In this document: positions 1 to 4,057 of the stretch, piece after piece
Numbering within the stretch: position 1 is the first letter of the stretch
Layout: each line of letters starts with the position of its first letter
Source of the DNA: a virus
Taxonomy: Duplodnaviria > Heunggongvirae > Uroviricota > Caudoviricetes
Direction: 5' to 3' (one strand)
Length of the DNA stretch: 4,057 nt
Virus record (IMG/VR): IMGVR_UViG_2695420701_000014
Position numbers and translations under genes: made by a program
The notes under the pieces: model-generated
What the model was told of the DNA's origin: nothing
Databases searched by the model: none
Seen by the model: only the letters and a program-made list of their open reading frames with translations

Positions 1-673
1 TCATGACCATGCGATCCATCACCCGCTCGCCGAGAAGTGTATTCATCGCTGCATGGTTAATATTTGTCAGCATCCCCACACCGCGTAACGATGCCGTCCG
101 GCGATCAACAATCTGGTTCAGTACCACCTGCTCGTTTTTCGTATCCCGCTGCATGCCAATTTCATCCAGGACCAGCAGGTCAACACCACAAAGCTCCTGT
201 AAAAATTTTTCACCGGATTTGCCGTTGTCGTAGCTCTCATGCAACACGCTCATGACATCGGACACGGTGACGATAATCACGCTACGCCCCTTCGCCATCA
301 GCCGGTTGCCAATCGCGTCTGCAAGATGATTTTTTCCGGTGCCGGGCTTACCGCTGAACACAAAATTCGTACAGCCTGTCATCAGTTCGTCAGCTATGGA
401 TTTCGCCTGACTCAGTGCATGTCGCTGACCGTCGTTCTGCGCCCGGTAATTCGCAAACGAACACTTCCGGTGCAACGGCTGGATGCCGGAGCGGTTCAGG
501 ATTTTTTCCACCCGCAACTGACGATTCAGGCGGTTGATCTCCTCGCAACGTTTCTGGCCTTCAGCAAGTTGCCACTCGCGCCACTCCGCAACCGTTCTGA
601 ATGGGGCGGTTACATGTGGTGGGGTCAGTCTGCGGATACGCTCCAGAACGCCTCCTGTCGCAATATTTTTCAT
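1..673 (-). CDS. DnaC-like AAA+ helicase loader (phage P-function analogue, YdaV-like); partial, C-terminal ~20 aa lie beyond the window edge
   Basis: Minus-strand frame from ATG 673-671 reads MKNIATGGVLERIRRLTPPH...FVFSGKPGTGKNHLADAIGN...VDLLVLDEIGMQRDTKNEQVVLNQIVDRR...GERVMDRMVM with no stop before position 1. Walker A GKPGTGKN is encoded at about 331-352 and a Walker B-like LLVLDE follows. The order of motifs is collinear with E. coli DnaC as I recall it. An SD-like AGGGGG sits 6 nt upstream, inside the end of the preceding gene. The ORF is absent from the supplied track because it has no stop inside the window. Confidence 0.9.
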   Translation of the reverse strand, partial: MKNIATGGVLERIRRLTPPHVTAPFRTVAEWREWQLAEGQKRCEEINRLNRQLRVEKILNRSGIQPLHRKCSFANYRAQNDGQRHALSQAKSIADELMTGCTNFVFSGKPGTGKNHLADAIGNRLMAKGRSVIIVTVSDVMSVLHESYDNGKSGEKFLQELCGVDLLVLDEIGMQRDTKNEQVVLNQIVDRRTASLRGVGMLTNINHAAMNTLLGERVMDRMVM

Positions 674-679
674 GGTCTG

Positions 680-1828
680 TTACCCCCTGAAGCCTGGCGG
701 GATCGCACTGTCCGGCAACGAGACGGTGTTAACCTGTCGGAGCAACGTCTCAGGCCGAACACCTTTCGGCGCGAACAGGCCCTGGTATTCATTGGCGATG
801 CTGTGTCGAATCACCTGCTCAGGTGTAAAACCCTGCTGACGGAATTTTTCCAGTTCCCGTATCGCCCCGTTAGCGCCCTGCTCCGTTCGAATCGGTTTTC
901 GCAATGCCTGCCTGAACTGGACCCACTCATGCCAGAGTGTTTCTGGCAACCAGTCGGGCAGATCAACTGACAACGGGTCAAATTTTTTCTGGCGAACAGC
1001 CCCACCGATAACCAGAATTCCCTGCTCGGTGTGCCTTGCGATATCACTGCGCCGCAAGACACATATCCCGGTTTCAACAGCACCGATTTTGAGCAGTGAT
1101 TTCTGTCGCGGAGAATTTCGGTCAAGCTCGCTCCCACACCGGACACCGTTCCTGTCAGTCACGACGATATCAATCCGCCCTCCGCAACCGTCACCACGCT
1201 CTGGCACCGGATACTCACGACAGACATCCAGGCCAGCAGCCTGCAACGCAACCACCGCAGAATTACAAAATTCCGCTGCAGTACCGCCAGATAATCTCCC
1301 CTCAAGCACTCCAGCCACAAAATCCCGAAACTCCCTTCCGGAAGGGAAGGGTTTGGGATGGGTTAGATCTGTTTTTAGATCTTTATCTGTATCTTTATTA
1401 GTTGCCTTTGTGTTGGCATCATGTTCGAACATCACTCCAACATCTGTTTGAACACCTGTTAAATTTCTCTCTTGTTTTGTTTGAACATCTGCTTCCTTTC
1501 TGCTTCTTCTGGCCTGAACAGATGCTTTTCCTGCGGCTGATTTTTTGGTTAATTTTTCTCTGACAGATGCCAGATCTTCCTCAATCCGAAGATGCATCCA
1601 TTCGTCGCCGTTATCACAAAAAAACTCCCGCAAGGATGGTTCAACATCAACCCATCGCTCGTTAGTCAGACGGGCAATTTTTGCCAACCTGTTTTTGGGT
1701 ATTGGCTTTCCTGTTTGCCAGTAATTGAACATCAGCAACAAATACGCGCCGTGCTCCTCTGCTGACAAATGCATGGTGTCAGCCAGGTAATCAGCTATGT
1801 ACAGTTGCATGTATGGTAATGCGGCCAT
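680..1828 (-). CDS. Replication initiator, O-like, with DUF1376-type N-terminal domain (YdaU-like); iteron-encoding K/D/T-rich linker; C-terminal domain presumed to recruit the helicase loader
   Basis: ORF-track frame 680..1879 (399 aa). I place the start at ATG 1828-1826 (MAALPYMQLYIADYLADTMHLSAEEHGAYLLLMFNYWQTGKPIP...) because it is preceded by a GGGG SD at 5-nt spacing, whereas ATG 1879 has no SD and adds a hydrophobic 17-aa extension. The N-terminal Y-x-x-D-Y-L-x-D-T...E-x-H-G-A-Y pattern matches DUF1376 replication proteins as recalled. Stop TAA at 682-680 lies 6 nt upstream of the DnaC-like ATG, implying translational coupling. Gene order Cro-like, CII-like, O-like, P-like matches lambdoid replication modules. 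Confidence 0.8.
   Translation of the reverse strand: MAALPYMQLYIADYLADTMHLSAEEHGAYLLLMFNYWQTGKPIPKNRLAKIARLTNERWVDVEPSLREFFCDNGDEWMHLRIEEDLASVREKLTKKSAAGKASVQARRSRKEADVQTKQERNLTGVQTDVGVMFEHDANTKATNKDTDKDLKTDLTHPKPFPSGREFRDFVAGVLEGRLSGGTAAEFCNSAVVALQAAGLDVCREYPVPERGDGCGGRIDIVVTDRNGVRCGSELDRNSPRQKSLLKIGAVETGICVLRRSDIARHTEQGILVIGGAVRQKKFDPLSVDLPDWLPETLWHEWVQFRQALRKPIRTEQGANGAIRELEKFRQQGFTPEQVIRHSIANEYQGLFAPKGVRPETLLRQVNTVSLPDSAIPPGFRG
1363..1577. other. Putative phage origin of replication embedded in the O-like gene: iteron-like repeats plus AT-rich tract with AGATCT/GATC sites
   Basis: GAACA-centred repeats at 1427, 1450, 1483 and 1516 (spacing 23, 33, 33 bp): ATGTTCGAACAT (12-bp perfect palindrome, 1421-1432), CTGTTTGAACACCTG (1444-1458), TTGTTTGAACATCTG (1479-1493, 13/15 identical to the previous), CCTGAACAGATGC (1513-1525), and a degenerate copy CTGACAGATGC near 1560-1570. 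An adjacent AT-rich tract at 1363-1400 (TTAGATCTGTTTTTAGATCTTTATCTGTATCTTTATTAG) carries two AGATCT hexamers, with a third at 1572-1577. The arrangement parallels the lambda ori inside gene O (established knowledge). Confidence 0.5.
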
Positions 1829-1891
1829 AATTGCCCCGTATGATGCTGCCCGGTTGCTTAGAATAAGCACAAACAGCATGGAAACTTTTGC

Positions 1892-2314
1892 TTAATGAAC
1901 AATGACAGAATCGTCGGAAGACCCGCCGCCGCTGAAATGCGCTTTCCGGTAAACGGCCTGGACTGCATCATCATGCGCATCAATTGCCGTACTCAACGCT
2001 TCCTGCGCCGCCAGTAATGCACGGCGTTCCAGGGTATCGAAGATGCAGAGTCGGTGACGCAGCTCGCGCGGAAGAATTGCCAGAACCGCAGGGATCAGTT
2101 TCTGAATTTTTTCCCTTTGCGCTTTCGTTTCACCTTTCAACCAACGGTGATAGATATTCTGCTGATTGTTCCAGTCCTTGCCTGGTACAAGGGGCAATTC
2201 GCCGCCCCCCTGGCGCAGATATTCTTCAGTAATTGCGTTAGCGACCCACGCCTGCCCTTTTTCGGCTGCCAGGGCTAACAACACTGATTCGATGTGCTCA
2301 TGCCTGATTTTCAT
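1892..2314 (-). CDS. YdaT-like protein (140 aa), proposed functional equivalent of lambda CII in Rac/CP-933P-type prophages
   Basis: 140-aa ORF (MKIRHEHIESVLLALAAEKGQAWVANAITEEYLRQ...). Its start ATG 2314-2312 overlaps the stop TGA 2313-2311 of the upstream Cro-like gene (ATGA overlap). Size and position immediately after the Cro-like gene and before the O/P-like genes match ydaT of Rac-type prophages. The assignment is by context and recollection, not a search. Confidence 0.7.
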   Translation of the reverse strand: MKIRHEHIESVLLALAAEKGQAWVANAITEEYLRQGGGELPLVPGKDWNNQQNIYHRWLKGETKAQREKIQKLIPAVLAILPRELRHRLCIFDTLERRALLAAQEALSTAIDAHDDAVQAVYRKAHFSGGGSSDDSVIVH

Positions 2315-2553
2315 GAATCAACCGCTCCTATGCTGTTTTCGCTATGCTTACCGTCTGGGGGGAATACATCGTCAAGTCCACAATGAGCGCCAAGCCGATT
2401 AAGGGTAGAAACAATTTTTCTGCACTCCTCTAGTCCAGGGGTACGAAAATTTGCTTCGTAATTTGCCAGTCGGCTTTGTATCCACCCTAACTGAACAGCA
2501 AGTTGTCTTTGAGACAGCCCAAGCTGTTTTCGATATGTTGAAATTTTGTTCAT
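2311..2553 (-). CDS. Cro-like HTH (XRE family) transcriptional regulator, 80 aa (YdaS-like position)
   Basis: ATG at 2553-2551 preceded by GGAGG with 6-nt spacing. The product MNKISTYRKQLGLSQRQLAVQLGWIQSRLANYEANFRTP... has a clear HTH (LGLSQRQLA...GWIQSRLANYE). It is divergent from the repressor gene across a 96-bp operator-bearing spacer. Confidence 0.8.
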   Translation of the reverse strand: MNKISTYRKQLGLSQRQLAVQLGWIQSRLANYEANFRTPGLEECRKIVSTLNRLGAHCGLDDVFPPDGKHSENSIGAVDS

Positions 2554-2577
2554 TGAAAACCTCCGATGACAATTTTA

Positions 2578-2638
2578 AACACACCTTGTGTTATATAGCC
2601 AAGCCGTTTTGTGTTTTATGTAAATCACGATTCGTGAT
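2578..2638. promoter_or_regulatory. OR-like operator cluster: three 15-bp dyad sites at 23-bp centre spacing between the divergent Cro-like and repressor genes
   Basis: AACACA-cct-TGTGTT (2578-2592, perfect 6-3-6 dyad); AAGCCG-ttt-TGTGTT (2601-2615, right half-site only); ATCACGA-t-TCGTGAT (2624-2638, perfect dyad). Shared core CACr-N3-yGTG; centres at 2585, 2608 and 2631. The divergent promoters themselves could not be assigned confidently. Confidence 0.55.
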
Positions 2639-2649
2639 ACAAGGATGCA

Positions 2650-3069
2650 ATGGAAAAAGAAAACGAAAAAATTGCCGCTAGTAGGCTCAATGACAAAATT
2701 GCAATGCGTCTTAAAGAGCGCAGGCAGAAGCTTGGTTTATCTCAAGGAAAACTTGCTGAAATCTGCGGATGGACGCAATCGCGTATAGGTAACTATGAGG
2801 CGGGCAGCAGAAATGTTGGAGTACATGACGCTGTCGTATTGGGAAAGGCACTTGGCATATCTCCTCCTGAGCTCCTCTTTGGAGAACAGGAATCTTCTGA
2901 ATTGTGGTTAAATGAATCCCAACGAAAACTTCTTGAGTTGTTTAACCAGCTACCGGGCTCAGAACAACAACGAATGATTGAGCTATTTGAAGTCCGGCTA
3001 AAAGAAATCGATGAGTATGTAGAAAAATATTTGAGAGGCAGGATTAAAGATAATCCCCCACCGGAATAA
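2650..3069 (+). CDS. Prophage repressor, CI-functional/RacR-like, XRE-family HTH, 139 aa, no LexA-like S24 peptidase domain
   Basis: ATG 2650 with AAGGA SD 4 nt upstream. HTH LGLSQGKLAEICGWTQSRIGNYEAG; the recognition-helix region GWTQSRIGNYEA is nearly identical to that of the Cro-like protein (GWIQSRLANYEA). The C-terminal ~60 aa are charged and helical-looking (ELWLNESQRKLLELFNQLPGSEQQRMIELFEVRLKEIDEYVEKYL) and too short for an S24 autoprotease fold. An intrinsic terminator follows. Confidence 0.85.
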   Translation: MEKENEKIAASRLNDKIAMRLKERRQKLGLSQGKLAEICGWTQSRIGNYEAGSRNVGVHDAVVLGKALGISPPELLFGEQESSELWLNESQRKLLELFNQLPGSEQQRMIELFEVRLKEIDEYVEKYLRGRIKDNPPPE

Positions 3070-3099
3070 TGATCTTGCTATCACAGTAATATGCCAATC

Positions 3100-3123
3100 A
3101 GCCCGCTATCAGCGGGCTTTTTT
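3100..3123 (+). terminator. Rho-independent terminator of the repressor transcript
   Basis: AGCCCGCT-atc-AGCGGGCT forms a perfect 8-bp GC-rich stem with a 3-nt loop, followed directly by a T-run (3118-3123), 31 bp after the repressor stop codon. Confidence 0.75.
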
Positions 3124-3152
3124 GTAGCATCATCATATGACACTCACCATAA

Positions 3153-3194
3153 AACACGTTGCGTGTTGACACAAGAAAACAAATTGTGTTTAAT
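3153..3194 (+). promoter_or_regulatory. pL-like early promoter (sigma70 -35 TTGACA, 17-bp spacer, -10 TTTAAT) overlapped by two operator dyads
   Basis: -35 TTGACA at 3166-3171 (consensus) and -10 TTTAAT at 3189-3194 (5/6) with a 17-bp spacer. Operator AACACG-ttg-CGTGTT (3153-3167, perfect dyad) overlaps the -35; AAAACA-aat-TGTGTT (3176-3190, 11/12) overlaps the spacer and -10. Centres at 3160 and 3183, 23 bp apart, the same spacing as the OR-like cluster. Confidence 0.55.
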
Positions 3195-3374
3195 AAGCAT
3201 ATCCAAACAACGCCCCACCAGAGAACGGCAGGACAATACCTCGAGTTATCCAGTCACTGAACAGGGCTAAGTAGCCAGCCTGAGGCATACGAACATGACG
3301 GCAGTTGTTGATTGATACAAAGCGCAGTAGATAAAACGTTCCGCCACCCGGCGTTAAGGGGAAATGGGGTCAAC

Positions 3375-3530
3375 ATGAATACTATCGATCTTGGCAACAA
3401 CGAATCTCTGGTATGTGGCGTGTTTCCCAATCAAGACGGCACATTCACCGCCATGACGTATACCAAAAGCAAAACGTTTAAAACCGAAGCTGGCGCACGT
3501 CGTTGGTTGGGAAGACATTCAGGTGAGTAA
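3375..3530 (+). CDS. Small hypothetical protein, 51 aa; first gene of the putative early-left operon
   Basis: ATG 3375 with GGGG SD 5 nt upstream; product MNTIDLGNNESLVCGVFPNQDGTFTAMTYTKSKTFKTEAGARRWLGRHSGE; stop TAA 3528-3530 lies 1 nt before the next start. The track ORF 3312..3530 begins at a TTG with no SD, so I do not use that start. No family recognised from memory. Confidence 0.5.
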   Translation: MNTIDLGNNESLVCGVFPNQDGTFTAMTYTKSKTFKTEAGARRWLGRHSGE

Positions 3531-3531
3531 A

Positions 3532-3735
3532 ATGAACGAGACAGAATTAAAACACGTTATCGCTCTACTCCTAGAAGATGCAAAACGCCTCCAGCAACTG
3601 GAGCCAAATGCAGGCACTGGGGCACGCATCTGGCTGGCTAAAGAAGCGCTGGAATCTGGCGATTATGATAGCGAAGAAGCCTTCTACAAAGCAGAAGGCC
3701 GTGCAGGATATTCACCGGGTCTTGGCGGGGTATAA
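3532..3735 (+). CDS. Small acidic hypothetical protein, 67 aa, translationally coupled to the upstream 51-aa gene
   Basis: ATG 3532 preceded by AGGTGA SD (3521-3526) at 5-nt spacing; the track start at 3523 is GTG without an SD. Product MNETELKHVIALLLEDAKRLQQLEPNAGTGARIWLAKEALESGDYDSEEAFYKAEGRAGYSPGLGGV. No family recognised. Confidence 0.5.
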   Translation: MNETELKHVIALLLEDAKRLQQLEPNAGTGARIWLAKEALESGDYDSEEAFYKAEGRAGYSPGLGGV

Positions 3736-4002
3736 ATACCATGCGCATTGACTGAATTCGCAAACAAAAACAGACGCGCGATACCTGGATAGTCGGTCTG
3801 CATAGTCAGATATCTGGCTGCGAATTTGATAAATATCACCGCCCTTTTCGGAAACATAAGTTCCGTCCGGGAGTTGATTATACGAACCATCTCCATGGGG
3901 GATCGTTCTCCTGAATCCTAGTGAGAGCATATATTTATGAAGCCCTTCGTAATCCTCTGGCTCAGCATTATATAGTTCTACTCTGGCGAGATACGTTGGC
4001 AT
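3712..4002 (-). CDS. Hypothetical protein, 96 aa, convergent with and overlapping the 3' end of the small-gene pair
   Basis: ATG 4002-4000 preceded by AAGGAA SD with 6-nt spacing (AAGGAAatgaatATGCCA). Product MPTYLARVELYNAEPEDYEGLHKYMLSLGFRRTIPHGDGSYNQLPDGTYVSEKGGDIYQIRSQISDYADRLSRYRASVFVCEFSQCAWYLYPAKTR. The track start at 4041 is TTG and the frame stays open to the window edge, so the N-terminus is not fully certain. Its 3' end overlaps gene 3532..3735 by 24 bp. Confidence 0.6.
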   Translation of the reverse strand: MPTYLARVELYNAEPEDYEGLHKYMLSLGFRRTIPHGDGSYNQLPDGTYVSEKGGDIYQIRSQISDYADRLSRYRASVFVCEFSQCAWYLYPAKTR

Positions 4003-4057
4003 ATTCATTTCCTTACTGGTTGTGTGTGAAGTGGTCAACAAAAACTGGCCACCGAGT

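Follow-up and report, generated by a model that had tools for sequence, protein, structure and literature searches.

Among the closest described systems are the immunity regions of prophage CP-933P of E. coli O157:H7 and prophage Qin of E. coli K-12, analogous loci at which the switch architecture discussed here has been shown experimentally (PMC8630535, PMC10448788). In CP-933P, the two regulators PaaR2 and YdaS share their operators, binding overlapping sites at both OR and OL, and the paaR2 mRNA, like that of lambda cI, is leaderless (PMC8630535). A third protein, YdaT, acts as a CII analogue, and its TTGATT-N6-AATCAA box lies where ydaS and ydaT meet (PMC8630535, PMC9986795). In Qin, DicA and DicC form a bistable switch in which the antirepressor Rem inactivates DicA (PMC10448788), and antirepressors also inactivate the short Gifsy repressors (PMC3121763).

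The window, that is, the whole 4,057-nt stretch of DNA analysed here, is the immunity region of a Rac/Qin-like lambdoid prophage of E. coli. Divergent genes for a repressor and a Cro-like protein, both of the HTH_3 type, are separated by 96 bp. Leftward, the Cro-like gene is followed by YdaT, a CII analogue, and replication genes; rightward, the short DicA-type repressor gene comes first, then a terminator, another promoter and a DUF1391 gene:

1892–2314, minus strand: YdaT, CII analogue (Pfam YdaT_toxin, E 2e-11; PHROG 163, CII-like activator, E 1e-36)
2311–2553, minus strand: Cro-like protein, 80 aa, HTH_3 (ORF; Pfam HTH_3, E 7e-10)
2650–3069, plus strand: repressor, 139 aa, DicA family (Pfam HTH_3 only)
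3100–3126, plus strand: intrinsic terminator of the repressor transcript (8-bp GC-rich stem and T run)
3375–3530, plus strand: DUF1391 (YdfA/YdaF-like), first gene of a PL-like operon (Pfam DUF1391, E 6e-29)

The gene order is that of CP-933P, where the intergenic region measures 97 bp, although a terminator follows the repressor here in place of the paaA2-parE2 toxin-antitoxin genes, and YdaT (PDB matches 8bt1 and 3c4r) has only remote similarity to its CP-933P counterpart (8bt1, E 1e-5). It is also collinear with dicC, dicA, DUF1391 (ydfA) and ydfB of Qin, the DUF1391 gene occupying the position of ydfA after dicA. Beyond YdaT, the genes downstream of cro encode a DUF1376 YdaU and a DnaC-like ATPase (Pfam), and ydaT-ydaU-ydaV is 88–95% identical in DNA to its Rac counterpart. 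The repressor terminator folds at -14.2 kcal/mol (z -3.9), and most relatives have a hairpin and T run at its place; no ORF lies between the repressor stop (3069) and the terminator or promoter. Searching the whole window against Rfam (E up to 1) gave only a sub-threshold Trp_leader over this terminator and a meaningless tmRNA fragment, and the 175-nt leader after PL has ordinary folding stability (z +1.3). In the near-identical VL40 locus, a Rha-family gene is located about 1 kb further right. The module, and with it this immunity type, is present in 153 of 5426 complete E. coli genomes (~3%), never twice per genome, which fits the expectation for an immunity determinant; relatives occur in Salmonella, Citrobacter, Klebsiella, Serratia and Pectobacterium.

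The repressor had been described as lacking an S24 domain, and Pfam indeed gives HTH domains only. Unlike lambda CI, the protein has no S24 autocleavage domain, the C-terminal peptidase domain that holds the Ser/Lys dyad and Ala-Gly cleavage site of cleavable repressors being absent from the Pfam matches; its build is that of the DicA/GfoR-type short, non-cleavable prophage repressors (~130–150 aa, HTH_3 plus a short helical C-terminal domain). It is homologous to DicA over its full length (residues 14–135, 29% identity, E 2e-15, BLASTP) and shares with it a C-terminal LLELFNxLPxSEQ helical domain, the C-terminus being modelled as a 45-residue helical hairpin (residues 89–133; AF2, pLDDT 86). 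S24-type cI proteins match only its N-terminal 70 residues, and comparison with RacR of Rac (K-12) gave no similarity (E 2.1). The N-terminal domain model superposes on the 434 and P22 repressor folds (Foldseek). PDB searches with the repressor and with a family profile, and Foldseek with the AF2 model, yielded HTH domain matches only (C.AhdI, Stl, P22 C2, 434), the C-terminal domain being covered by no solved structure in these searches. An 83%-identical Salmonella homologue was considered as GfoR or GftR and is neither, judging from the primer-encoded N-termini in PMC3121763.

Repressor and Cro-like protein are 45% identical over 42 residues (E 2e-10). The HTH segments that the original prediction called almost identical, GWTQSRIGNYEA (repressor 40–51) and GWIQSRLANYEA (Cro-like 23–34), share 9 of 12 residues. 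Within them, helix 3 of the repressor's N-terminal HTH (residues 43–51) reads QSRIGNYEA and the predicted recognition helix of the Cro-like protein QSRLANYEA. The latter protein is all-helical, as are 434 and P22 Cro, and in this differs from the lambda Cro fold; it has no detectable similarity to DicC. The recognition helix also differs from that of Qin, as do the operators, which in Qin are TGTTAG...CTAACA-type repeats.

All five proposed dyads, of the form AACAC-R-NNN-Y-GTGTT, were located, and their spacing of 23 bp within each cluster is exact:

2578–2592: OR1-like dyad AACACAcctTGTGTT (= AACACACCTTGTGTT), centre 2585, no mismatch to AACACN5GTGTT
2601–2615: OR2-like degenerate dyad AAGCCGtttTGTGTT (= AAGCCGTTTTGTGTT), centre 2608, two mismatches, the right arm alone intact
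2624–2638: OR3-like dyad ATCACGAtTCGTGAT (= ATCACGATTCGTGAT), centre 2631, found by the AACACN5GTGTT scan with up to two mismatches
3153–3167: first OL dyad AACACGttgCGTGTT (= AACACGTTGCGTGTT), centre 3160, no mismatch to AACACN5GTGTT
3176–3190: second OL dyad AAAACAaatTGTGTT (= AAAACAAATTGTGTT), centre 3183, one mismatch to AACACN5GTGTT

As in Qin, where the corresponding sites are known (PMC10448788), one cluster lies in the divergent intergenic region and the other at the promoter downstream. The CP-933P operator consensus GTTTAGTAA gave a single 1-mismatch match here (0.5 expected) and none in the control regions. Across the window, CACRNNNYGTG has three exact matches against 0.28 expected, and AACACN5GTGTT with up to two mismatches has eight against 2.0 expected; five of these are the sites listed and the remaining three (460, 1741, 2925) amount to a chance number. 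Three pairs of matches are exactly 23 bp apart, an arrangement in which dinucleotide-preserving shuffles (n = 5000) reached one pair in 4 cases and more than one in none, a test that is partly circular because the motif was derived from these very sites. Conservation in relatives is independent of the motif's derivation, and the dyads stood up to it.

In ~75 non-redundant related loci, whose repressors are 56–100% identical to ours, the same dyads occur at the same positions; the conservation in related prophages on which the original prediction would stand or fall, in both position and arms, thus extends down to 56% repressor identity. Among 88 non-redundant loci, all 75 with a GW.QSRIGNYE repressor carry at least two motif matches in the 130 bp upstream, and 0 of 11 with another HTH do so, proportions for which Fisher tests describe a pattern rather than true probabilities because the loci share ancestry. 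Site logos show arms of ~2 bits, R at position 6, Y at position 10 and ~0 bits for the central 3 nt. In the OR cluster, spacing is 23, then 23 or 24 bp; the arms of OR1 are invariant in 28 distinct versions from 86 loci, and OR2 keeps a distance of 23 bp from OR1 and is the weakest site throughout. In 46 of 50 distinct configurations the start of OR3 lies 26 nt upstream of the repressor ATG; this dyad reads ATCACG..CGTGAT in the E. coli/Salmonella subgroup and AACACG..CGTGGT in remoter relatives. At OL, the right arm of the first dyad is joined to TTGACA in all relatives (the fusion GTGTTGAC is kept in 27 distinct versions), and the second dyad lies 23–24 bp from the first, with an invariant right arm GTGTT followed by TAA. 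Remoter relatives have a third OL half-site, absent here, where OL consists of two dyads.

The dyads change together with the predicted recognition helices. Across related loci both proteins keep the helix QSR..NYE, the Cro helix being paired with the repressor helix wherever a Cro ORF was found (two loci have none). Heteroimmune relatives with the same C-terminal domain and the helix pair GVTPQAVNGW/GVSGMAVSQW carry TAAAC-N5-GTTTA dyads in the same places, -73 and -25, and the variant pair GWATASRVGNYE/GWGRSRLSNYE goes with GACAC..GTGTC dyads. From these comparisons, the dyads are almost certainly operators that the prophage repressor and Cro-like protein would both bind.

Both clusters overlap promoter-like hexamers, which were read by eye and are conserved in relatives:

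2572–2602, minus strand: putative PR-like promoter, -35 TTGGCT (2602–2597), 17-nt spacer, -10 TTTAAA (2579–2574) or TAAAAT (2577–2572)
2615–2643, plus strand: putative weak PRM-like promoter, -35-like TTTATG (2615–2620), 17-nt spacer, -10-like TACAAG (2638–2643)
3166–3194, plus strand: putative PL-like promoter, TTGACA (3166–3171), 17 nt, TTTAAT (3189–3194)

OR1 lies in the PR-like spacer and OR3 in the PRM-like spacer, and OR2 has its left arm over the PR -35 and its right arm adjoining the PRM -35. The first OL dyad has its right arm fused to the PL -35 (GTGTTGACA), and the second sits inside the PL spacer, overlapping the -10. Relatives have TTGACT/TTGACC-17-TTTAAT at the PR-like place; the -35 of this copy is TTGGCT in place of the usual TTGAC, suggesting that the copy may be partly decayed. 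The PL-like promoter, which points away from the repressor gene and toward the DUF1391 gene, is kept in relatives and in phage mEp213, and its counterpart in Qin is dicBp (PMC10448788). A sigma-70 consensus scan called none of the three, in the case of PR because it demands A at -10 position 2. Its two matches (3097–3069 and 2572–2543, both minus strand; 2.1 expected) were set aside, being inside or against coding sequence and at chance level. The repressor mRNA is probably leaderless, because the -10-like hexamer ends only 6 nt before the ATG at 2650, an arrangement that relatives keep as TA[ACG]AA[AGT], 6 nt and ATG; a purine-rich AAGGA 4 nt before this ATG means that a leadered mRNA from another start is possible. 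For a leaderless mRNA, the site centres would fall at about -19, -42 and -65, the geometry of lambda PRM; these values and the start sites may be a few bases out, as the proposed -10s (TTTAAA, TACAAG, TTTAAT) each lack a canonical base.

The conserved dyads, their co-variation with the helices and the lambda-like overlap with promoter-like hexamers support the CI/Cro-type switch with OR- and OL-like clusters that had been predicted, and allow its working to be sketched. Repressor and Cro-like protein would each recognise the 15-bp dyads as dimers, an oligomeric state that for the repressor we infer. OR1 to OR3, at 23 bp, fill the 96-bp divergent region, with OR1, a perfect dyad, in the spacer of the presumed leftward promoter for cro, ydaT and the replication genes, and the centres of OR2 and OR3 at about -42 and -19 from the repressor ATG. 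Repressor on OR1 and OR2, possibly bound cooperatively, would shut the lytic promoter, and repressor on OR2 would probably activate its own weak promoter; OR3, filled by excess repressor or preferentially by Cro, would turn the repressor promoter off, so that the two states might be bistable. The two OL dyads would cover the -35 and the spacer/-10 of a strong early-left promoter for DUF1391 and the genes after it, and YdaT would act separately, at its own box at 2304–2321. Lacking an S24 domain, the repressor would, like those of Gifsy and Qin, require for induction an antirepressor from outside this region; the window contains no candidate. We regard this explanation as a whole, from the shared dyads and OR/OL layout to the separate YdaT box and antirepressor induction, as quite probable.

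An improbable alternative is that the dyads serve the repressor only, the Cro-like protein having another target or being inactive in a possibly cryptic prophage, in which case there would be repression without two-protein competition. Two of the nine helix positions do differ between the proteins (I/L and G/A), as do flanking residues, and among close relatives the Cro coding sequence is more variable than that of the repressor (pi 0.018 vs 0.006). However, the differing positions normally face the protein core, and helix-3 positions 1, 2, 3 and 6–9 are identical. The helix pairing also holds for three independent specificity types and for mEp213, an active phage, and YdaS and DicC act on the operators of their own repressors (PMC8630535, PMC10448788), all of which argues for dyads shared by both proteins.

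Less likely still, and very unlikely in our view, is that YdaT, or a host regulator such as CRP, binds the third dyad (ATCACGATTCGTGAT) or the entire upstream cluster in place of the repressor and Cro. The original prediction had raised YdaT for the third dyad, but the canonical YdaT box turned up at the cro/ydaT junction instead:

2304–2321, minus strand: YdaT box TTGATTCATGAAAATCAG (gene strand), one mismatch to TTGATTN6AATCAA (0.05 expected per window)

The ydaT start codon lies within the spacer of this box, and an identical box is found at the same place in 41 loci; the equivalent boxes of Rac (ATGATTCATGAAAATCAA) and CP-933P have been footprinted (PMC11879457, PMC9986795, respectively). 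In Rac, YdaT also footprints the racR-ydaS intergenic region over the ydaS promoter, where the motif is not evident (PMC11879457), and a YdaT-box match with three mismatches lies at 2611–2628 here. Yet such matches are at chance level (2.8 expected), the half-site order of the third dyad, AATCA...TGAT, is the reverse of the TGATT...AATCA of the box, Group A relatives retain the OR3 dyad despite having a different protein as CII analogue, and neither dyad cluster contains a CRP-like site. YdaT thus most likely binds its separate box over its own start codon, and the third dyad belongs, as a conserved variant, to the same operator family as the others and is placed in the repressor-promoter spacer like lambda OR3.

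Chance palindromes, RNA hairpins or terminators can be given virtually no weight: a 5–6 bp hairpin could form at each dyad, but these folds are weak (-1.2 to -5.3 kcal/mol, vs -14.2 for the real terminator), the arms never vary and so show no compensatory changes, the dyads are placed within promoters, for the most part ahead of the likely transcription starts, and their periodic layout was reached in 0 of 5000 shuffles and keeps its positions across genera, comparative data that effectively refute the hairpin reading.

The switch so read follows lambda in having a gap of ~100 bp between divergent repressor and cro genes; three dyads in tandem, at 23–24 bp spacing, that overlap both promoters with the middle site weakest; the site closest to the repressor gene inside that gene's promoter spacer; a further set of operators over a promoter past the repressor terminator; and, downstream of cro, a CII analogue together with O/P-like genes. 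It differs from lambda in its 15-bp dyads of another sequence, in having only two OL sites, in an OR-OL distance of ~560 bp (~2.4 kb in lambda), and in having no N gene after PL. Phage mEp213 matches in operators, with QSRIGNYES as helix 3 of its cI and QSRLANYES in its Cro. Its dyads belong to the same family, A[AC]CAC-N5-GTG[AT]T, with three at OR and three at OL, a spacing of 22–24 bp and, as here, an OL arm fused to TTGACA. In contrast to our locus, mEp213 cI has an S24 LexA-like C-terminal domain, the phage carries lambda-type N, CII and O, and its operator arms are more often GTGAT.

This type of switch is well known, and the general picture of lambdoid switches is unchanged. In the literature, which was not searchable by sequence, we found no description of the recognition sequence of these operators. 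For one widespread Rac/Qin-like immunity type, the comparison gives the operator sequence, the arrangement of the sites and the likely promoter logic. It also offers a clean natural case of modular immunity, in which one C-terminal domain goes with differing HTH/Cro/operator cassettes and, conversely, one cassette occurs with C-terminal domains of both kinds, cleavable and non-cleavable. These data may help to annotate prophage switches and to predict which cryptic prophages and active phages are cross-immune, and may supply orthogonal repressor-operator pairs.

Phage 434, too, has a repressor and Cro with near-identical recognition helices and common operators, as predicted here, although its repressor is cleavable and its operator, ACAA-N6-TTGT, differs in sequence; in that operator, central bases that the proteins do not contact can vary, which tunes affinity. 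At our locus, among prophages >90% identical, no columns of the region vary more than those at the five central dyad positions. In this set, the arms have a nucleotide diversity of 0.006, compared with 0.090 for the centres and ~0.02–0.03 for the rest of the intergenic DNA; variable columns number 10 of 25 in the centres vs 37 of 326 in other intergenic DNA, and two central columns have three or four alleles. Tentatively, and with more doubt than confidence, these values may point to diversifying selection on operator centres, with lineages repeatedly retuning operator affinity via DNA-shape effects. If so, switch thresholds or cross-immunity would shift through changes in operator centres. 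As the same recognition module is found on the SOS-cleavable CI of mEp213 and on antirepressor-type short repressors, resident cryptic prophages might give immunity to active phages with another induction pathway, or might instead be cross-induced with them.

The gene order of the window matches that of Qin in K-12 (dicC, dicA, ydfA, ydfB). The E. coli VL40 chromosome has a prophage segment 99.7% identical to the window (4057 bp). The left half of the window also occurs, at 88-95% DNA identity, in Rac-like prophages and phages. The features are as follows.

2-673, minus strand: DnaC/IstB-like ATPase
680-1879, minus strand: DUF1376 YdaU-type replication initiator
1892-2314, minus strand: YdaT (Pfam YdaT_toxin; PHROG 'CII-like activator')
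2321..2304, minus (gene) strand: candidate YdaT box TTGATTCATGAAAATCAG, with the ydaT ATG in its spacer
2311-2553, minus strand: Cro-like protein (HTH_3)
2602..2574, minus strand: putative PR-like (leftward cro) promoter, TTGGCT-17-TTTAAA, read from sequence
2615-2643, plus strand: putative weak PRM-like (repressor) promoter, TTTATG-17-TACAAG, with OR3 in its spacer
2650-3069, plus strand: repressor (HTH_3, 139 aa)
3100-3126, plus strand: strong intrinsic terminator
3163-3171: right arm of the first OL dyad fused to the -35 of a putative PL-like promoter (GTGTTGACA), with its -10, TTTAAT, at 3189-3194
3375-3530, plus strand: DUF1391 gene

All five dyads of the original prediction were recovered, with centres at 2585 (OR1), 2608 (OR2) and 2631 (OR3) between the divergent genes, and at 3160 and 3183 (OL) beyond the terminator. 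Allowing up to two mismatches, AACACN5GTGTT has eight matches in the window where two are expected; five are these sites and the other three are at chance level. Three pairs of matches lie exactly 23 bp apart, and none of 5000 dinucleotide-preserving shuffles contained more than one such pair, although the motif comes from the sites being scored and its real test lies in the relatives.

We gathered 100 related loci (88 non-redundant) from bacterial genomes and viral contigs via the repressor family. Within 130 bp upstream of the repressor gene, at least two motif matches occur in 75/75 loci whose repressor carries GW.QSRIGNYE and in 0/11 loci with another HTH, counts that are descriptive only because the loci share ancestry. 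Conservation of the dyads at homologous positions held up, with sites in register across genera: OR1 and OR2 are always 23 bp apart, OR2 and OR3 23 or 24 bp, and the two downstream dyads 23-24 bp, while 46 of 50 distinct configurations place the start of OR3 26 nt upstream of the repressor ATG. The AACAC/GTGTT arms approach 2 bits per position in the site logos, with a purine at position 6, a pyrimidine at position 10 and almost no information in the three central bases. The arms have a nucleotide diversity of 0.006 among 24 distinct sequences >90% identical to the window, compared with 0.090 for the centres and 0.02-0.03 for the rest of the intergenic DNA. Conserved arms around a variable centre are what one expects if a protein contacts the arms of a dyad but not its centre. 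The pattern of an RNA hairpin is not matched, because compensatory changes are absent and the hairpins are weak. Of 5426 complete E. coli genomes, 153 carry the immunity module (2554-3200), always on the chromosome and in single copy, which is what mutual exclusion of homoimmune prophages would produce.

The Cro-like protein and the repressor share 45% identity over the HTH, and their predicted recognition helices, proposed to be near-identical, indeed differ only at positions 4 and 5 (I/L, G/A). Wherever a Cro ORF was found in related loci, a GW.QSRIGNYE repressor goes with a GW.QSR[LI][SA]NYE Cro. Heteroimmune relatives keep the C-terminal domain with another HTH, and repressor (GVTPQAVNGW) and Cro (GVSGMAVSQW) are again alike; these loci lack AACAC dyads, and TAAAC-N5-GTTTA-type dyads occupy the same positions (-73 and -25) instead. 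In two related loci, L005 (locus positions 2416-2480) and L009 (2419-2480, 2929-2968), the first helix 3 residue is changed in both proteins (GWATASRVGNYE in the repressor, GWGRSRLSNYE in Cro) and the outer dyad bases are changed as well, to GACAC..GTGTC and GCCAC..GTGGT, which hints at the helix 3 residue responsible for reading the outer base pair. In the active lambdoid phage mEp213, cI carries a LexA-like S24 domain, and its helix 3 is the same as that of the window repressor; the phage's Cro matches, and the same dyad family occurs three times at OR and three times at OL (locus L102, 1431-1492 and 2226-2286). None of these six dyads is annotated in the mEp213 GenBank record. Given this co-variation in the relatives and mEp213, the operator/HTH/Cro cassette thus moves as a unit, combined with either kind of C-terminal domain.

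The repressor is homologous to DicA along its whole length (29% identity, E 2e-15) and unrelated to RacR, and a domain search bore out its lack of an S24 domain. In its AlphaFold model (pLDDT 86), a five-helix HTH domain, with helix 3 at residues 43-51 (QSRIGNYEA), precedes a helical hairpin at the C-terminus (residues 89-133). Structural neighbours in the PDB match the HTH domain only and include C.AhdI, P22 C2 and 434 repressor/Cro.

We infer all promoter assignments from hexamers conserved in relatives; a consensus promoter scan of the window left the proposed promoters uncalled. In relatives, the leftward promoter reads TTGAC(T/C)-17 nt-TTTAAT, with OR1 within the spacer and OR2 over the -35. 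The -35 (2597-2602, minus strand) is TTGGCT here versus TTGACT or TTGACC in most relatives, and C at 2599 occurs in only 2 of 24 close variants; TTGGCT may be a down-mutation, in a cryptic prophage for which expression of the cro-ydaT operon is toxic. The PL-like promoter follows the design of the leftward one, the second OL dyad filling the spacer and touching the -10. OR3 differs systematically from OR1: position 6 is always G and position 10 always C, and the outer bases are changed (ATCAC/GTGAT in the window, GTGGT in distant relatives), which fits a site read differently by repressor and Cro.

In the window and nearly all relatives, including mEp213, 6 nt separate the PRM -10-like hexamer from the ATG, and this short distance suggests a leaderless repressor mRNA. 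Assuming such a start, the site centres would fall at -19, -42 and -65. Lambda PRM has this same geometry, its repressor activating at OR2 and repressing at OR3. Leaderless mRNA is known for lambda cI and has been shown for paaR2 of CP-933P, where the repressor mRNA is leaderless and the intergenic region is 97 bp (PMC8630535). With AAGGA directly upstream of the repressor ATG, a leadered transcript is also possible.

The third dyad had been proposed as a possible target of YdaT, which our results do not support: OR3 is retained in relatives whose CII analogue is a different protein, and the box at 2304-2321 is a better candidate. The latter is one mismatch from the footprinted CP-933P site TTGATT-N6-AATCAA (0.05 such matches expected per window), has two differences from the Rac YdaT box ATGATTCATGAAAATCAA, also footprinted and in the same place (PMC11879457, PMC9986795), and is unchanged in 41 related loci. 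Rac YdaT footprints on its own intergenic region too (PMC11879457), and by analogy a secondary interaction of YdaT with the OR region is conceivable.

Overall, strong comparative evidence favors the predicted CI/Cro-type switch, and the locus has the architecture of lambda OR/OL. Our comparisons support the dyads as putative operators of the repressor and the Cro-like protein in a well-understood kind of switch, for which binding, cooperativity and bistability are predicted. In CP-933P, the OR operators footprinted by PaaR2 and YdaS overlap, and both proteins repress a PL-like promoter with similar operators (PMC8630535). In Qin, DicA and DicC form a bistable switch, and the antirepressor Rem inactivates DicA (PMC10448788); antirepressors of Gifsy phages likewise inactivate short non-cleavable repressors of this family (PMC3121763). 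Operator sequence differs between these systems and our locus, which also lacks the CP-933P toxin-antitoxin pair, and DicC is unrelated to its Cro-like protein. We found no description of an AACAC-N5-GTGTT operator family in the papers covered by our text searches.

The sole feature slightly beyond the textbook is excess centre variability among near-identical prophages. The central five positions of the dyads (2583-2587, 2606-2610, 2629-2633, 3158-3162, 3181-3185) are the most variable columns: among the 24 distinct relatives >90% identical, 10/25 dyad-centre columns vary versus 37/326 other intergenic columns (p = 5e-4 in a test ignoring phylogeny), and columns 3161 and 3182 have 3-4 alleles with the arms fixed. 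Possible causes of this excess are a tuning of operator affinity and recombination between variants. Together with a cassette common to cleavable and non-cleavable repressors, it may be worth a dedicated analysis.

The YdaU-type ORF (680-1879, minus strand) encodes 399 aa versus 285 aa in K-12 Rac, and its Pfam DUF1376 match covers residues 22-104 only; an inserted domain or a mosaic junction may be involved. In the near-identical VL40 copy, the annotation gives two pseudogene fragments, with ~380 bp unassigned between them. A 98-aa ORF (3712-4008, minus strand) runs opposite to the early-left operon and matches PHROG 8894 (function unknown, E 4e-38). The VL40 RefSeq record shows no CDS at this position, and the ORF resembles a moron-type insertion. 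Finally, a leader of ~175 nt (3200-3374; 2940-3008 in locus L104) separates the PL-like promoter from the DUF1391 gene. It has no Rfam match and its folding energy is not unusual; blocks such as GTTCCGC.A.CC..GCG.TAAGGGGAAATG.GGTCA are kept in heteroimmune relatives and Qin, and the leader could be a translational or antitermination element.
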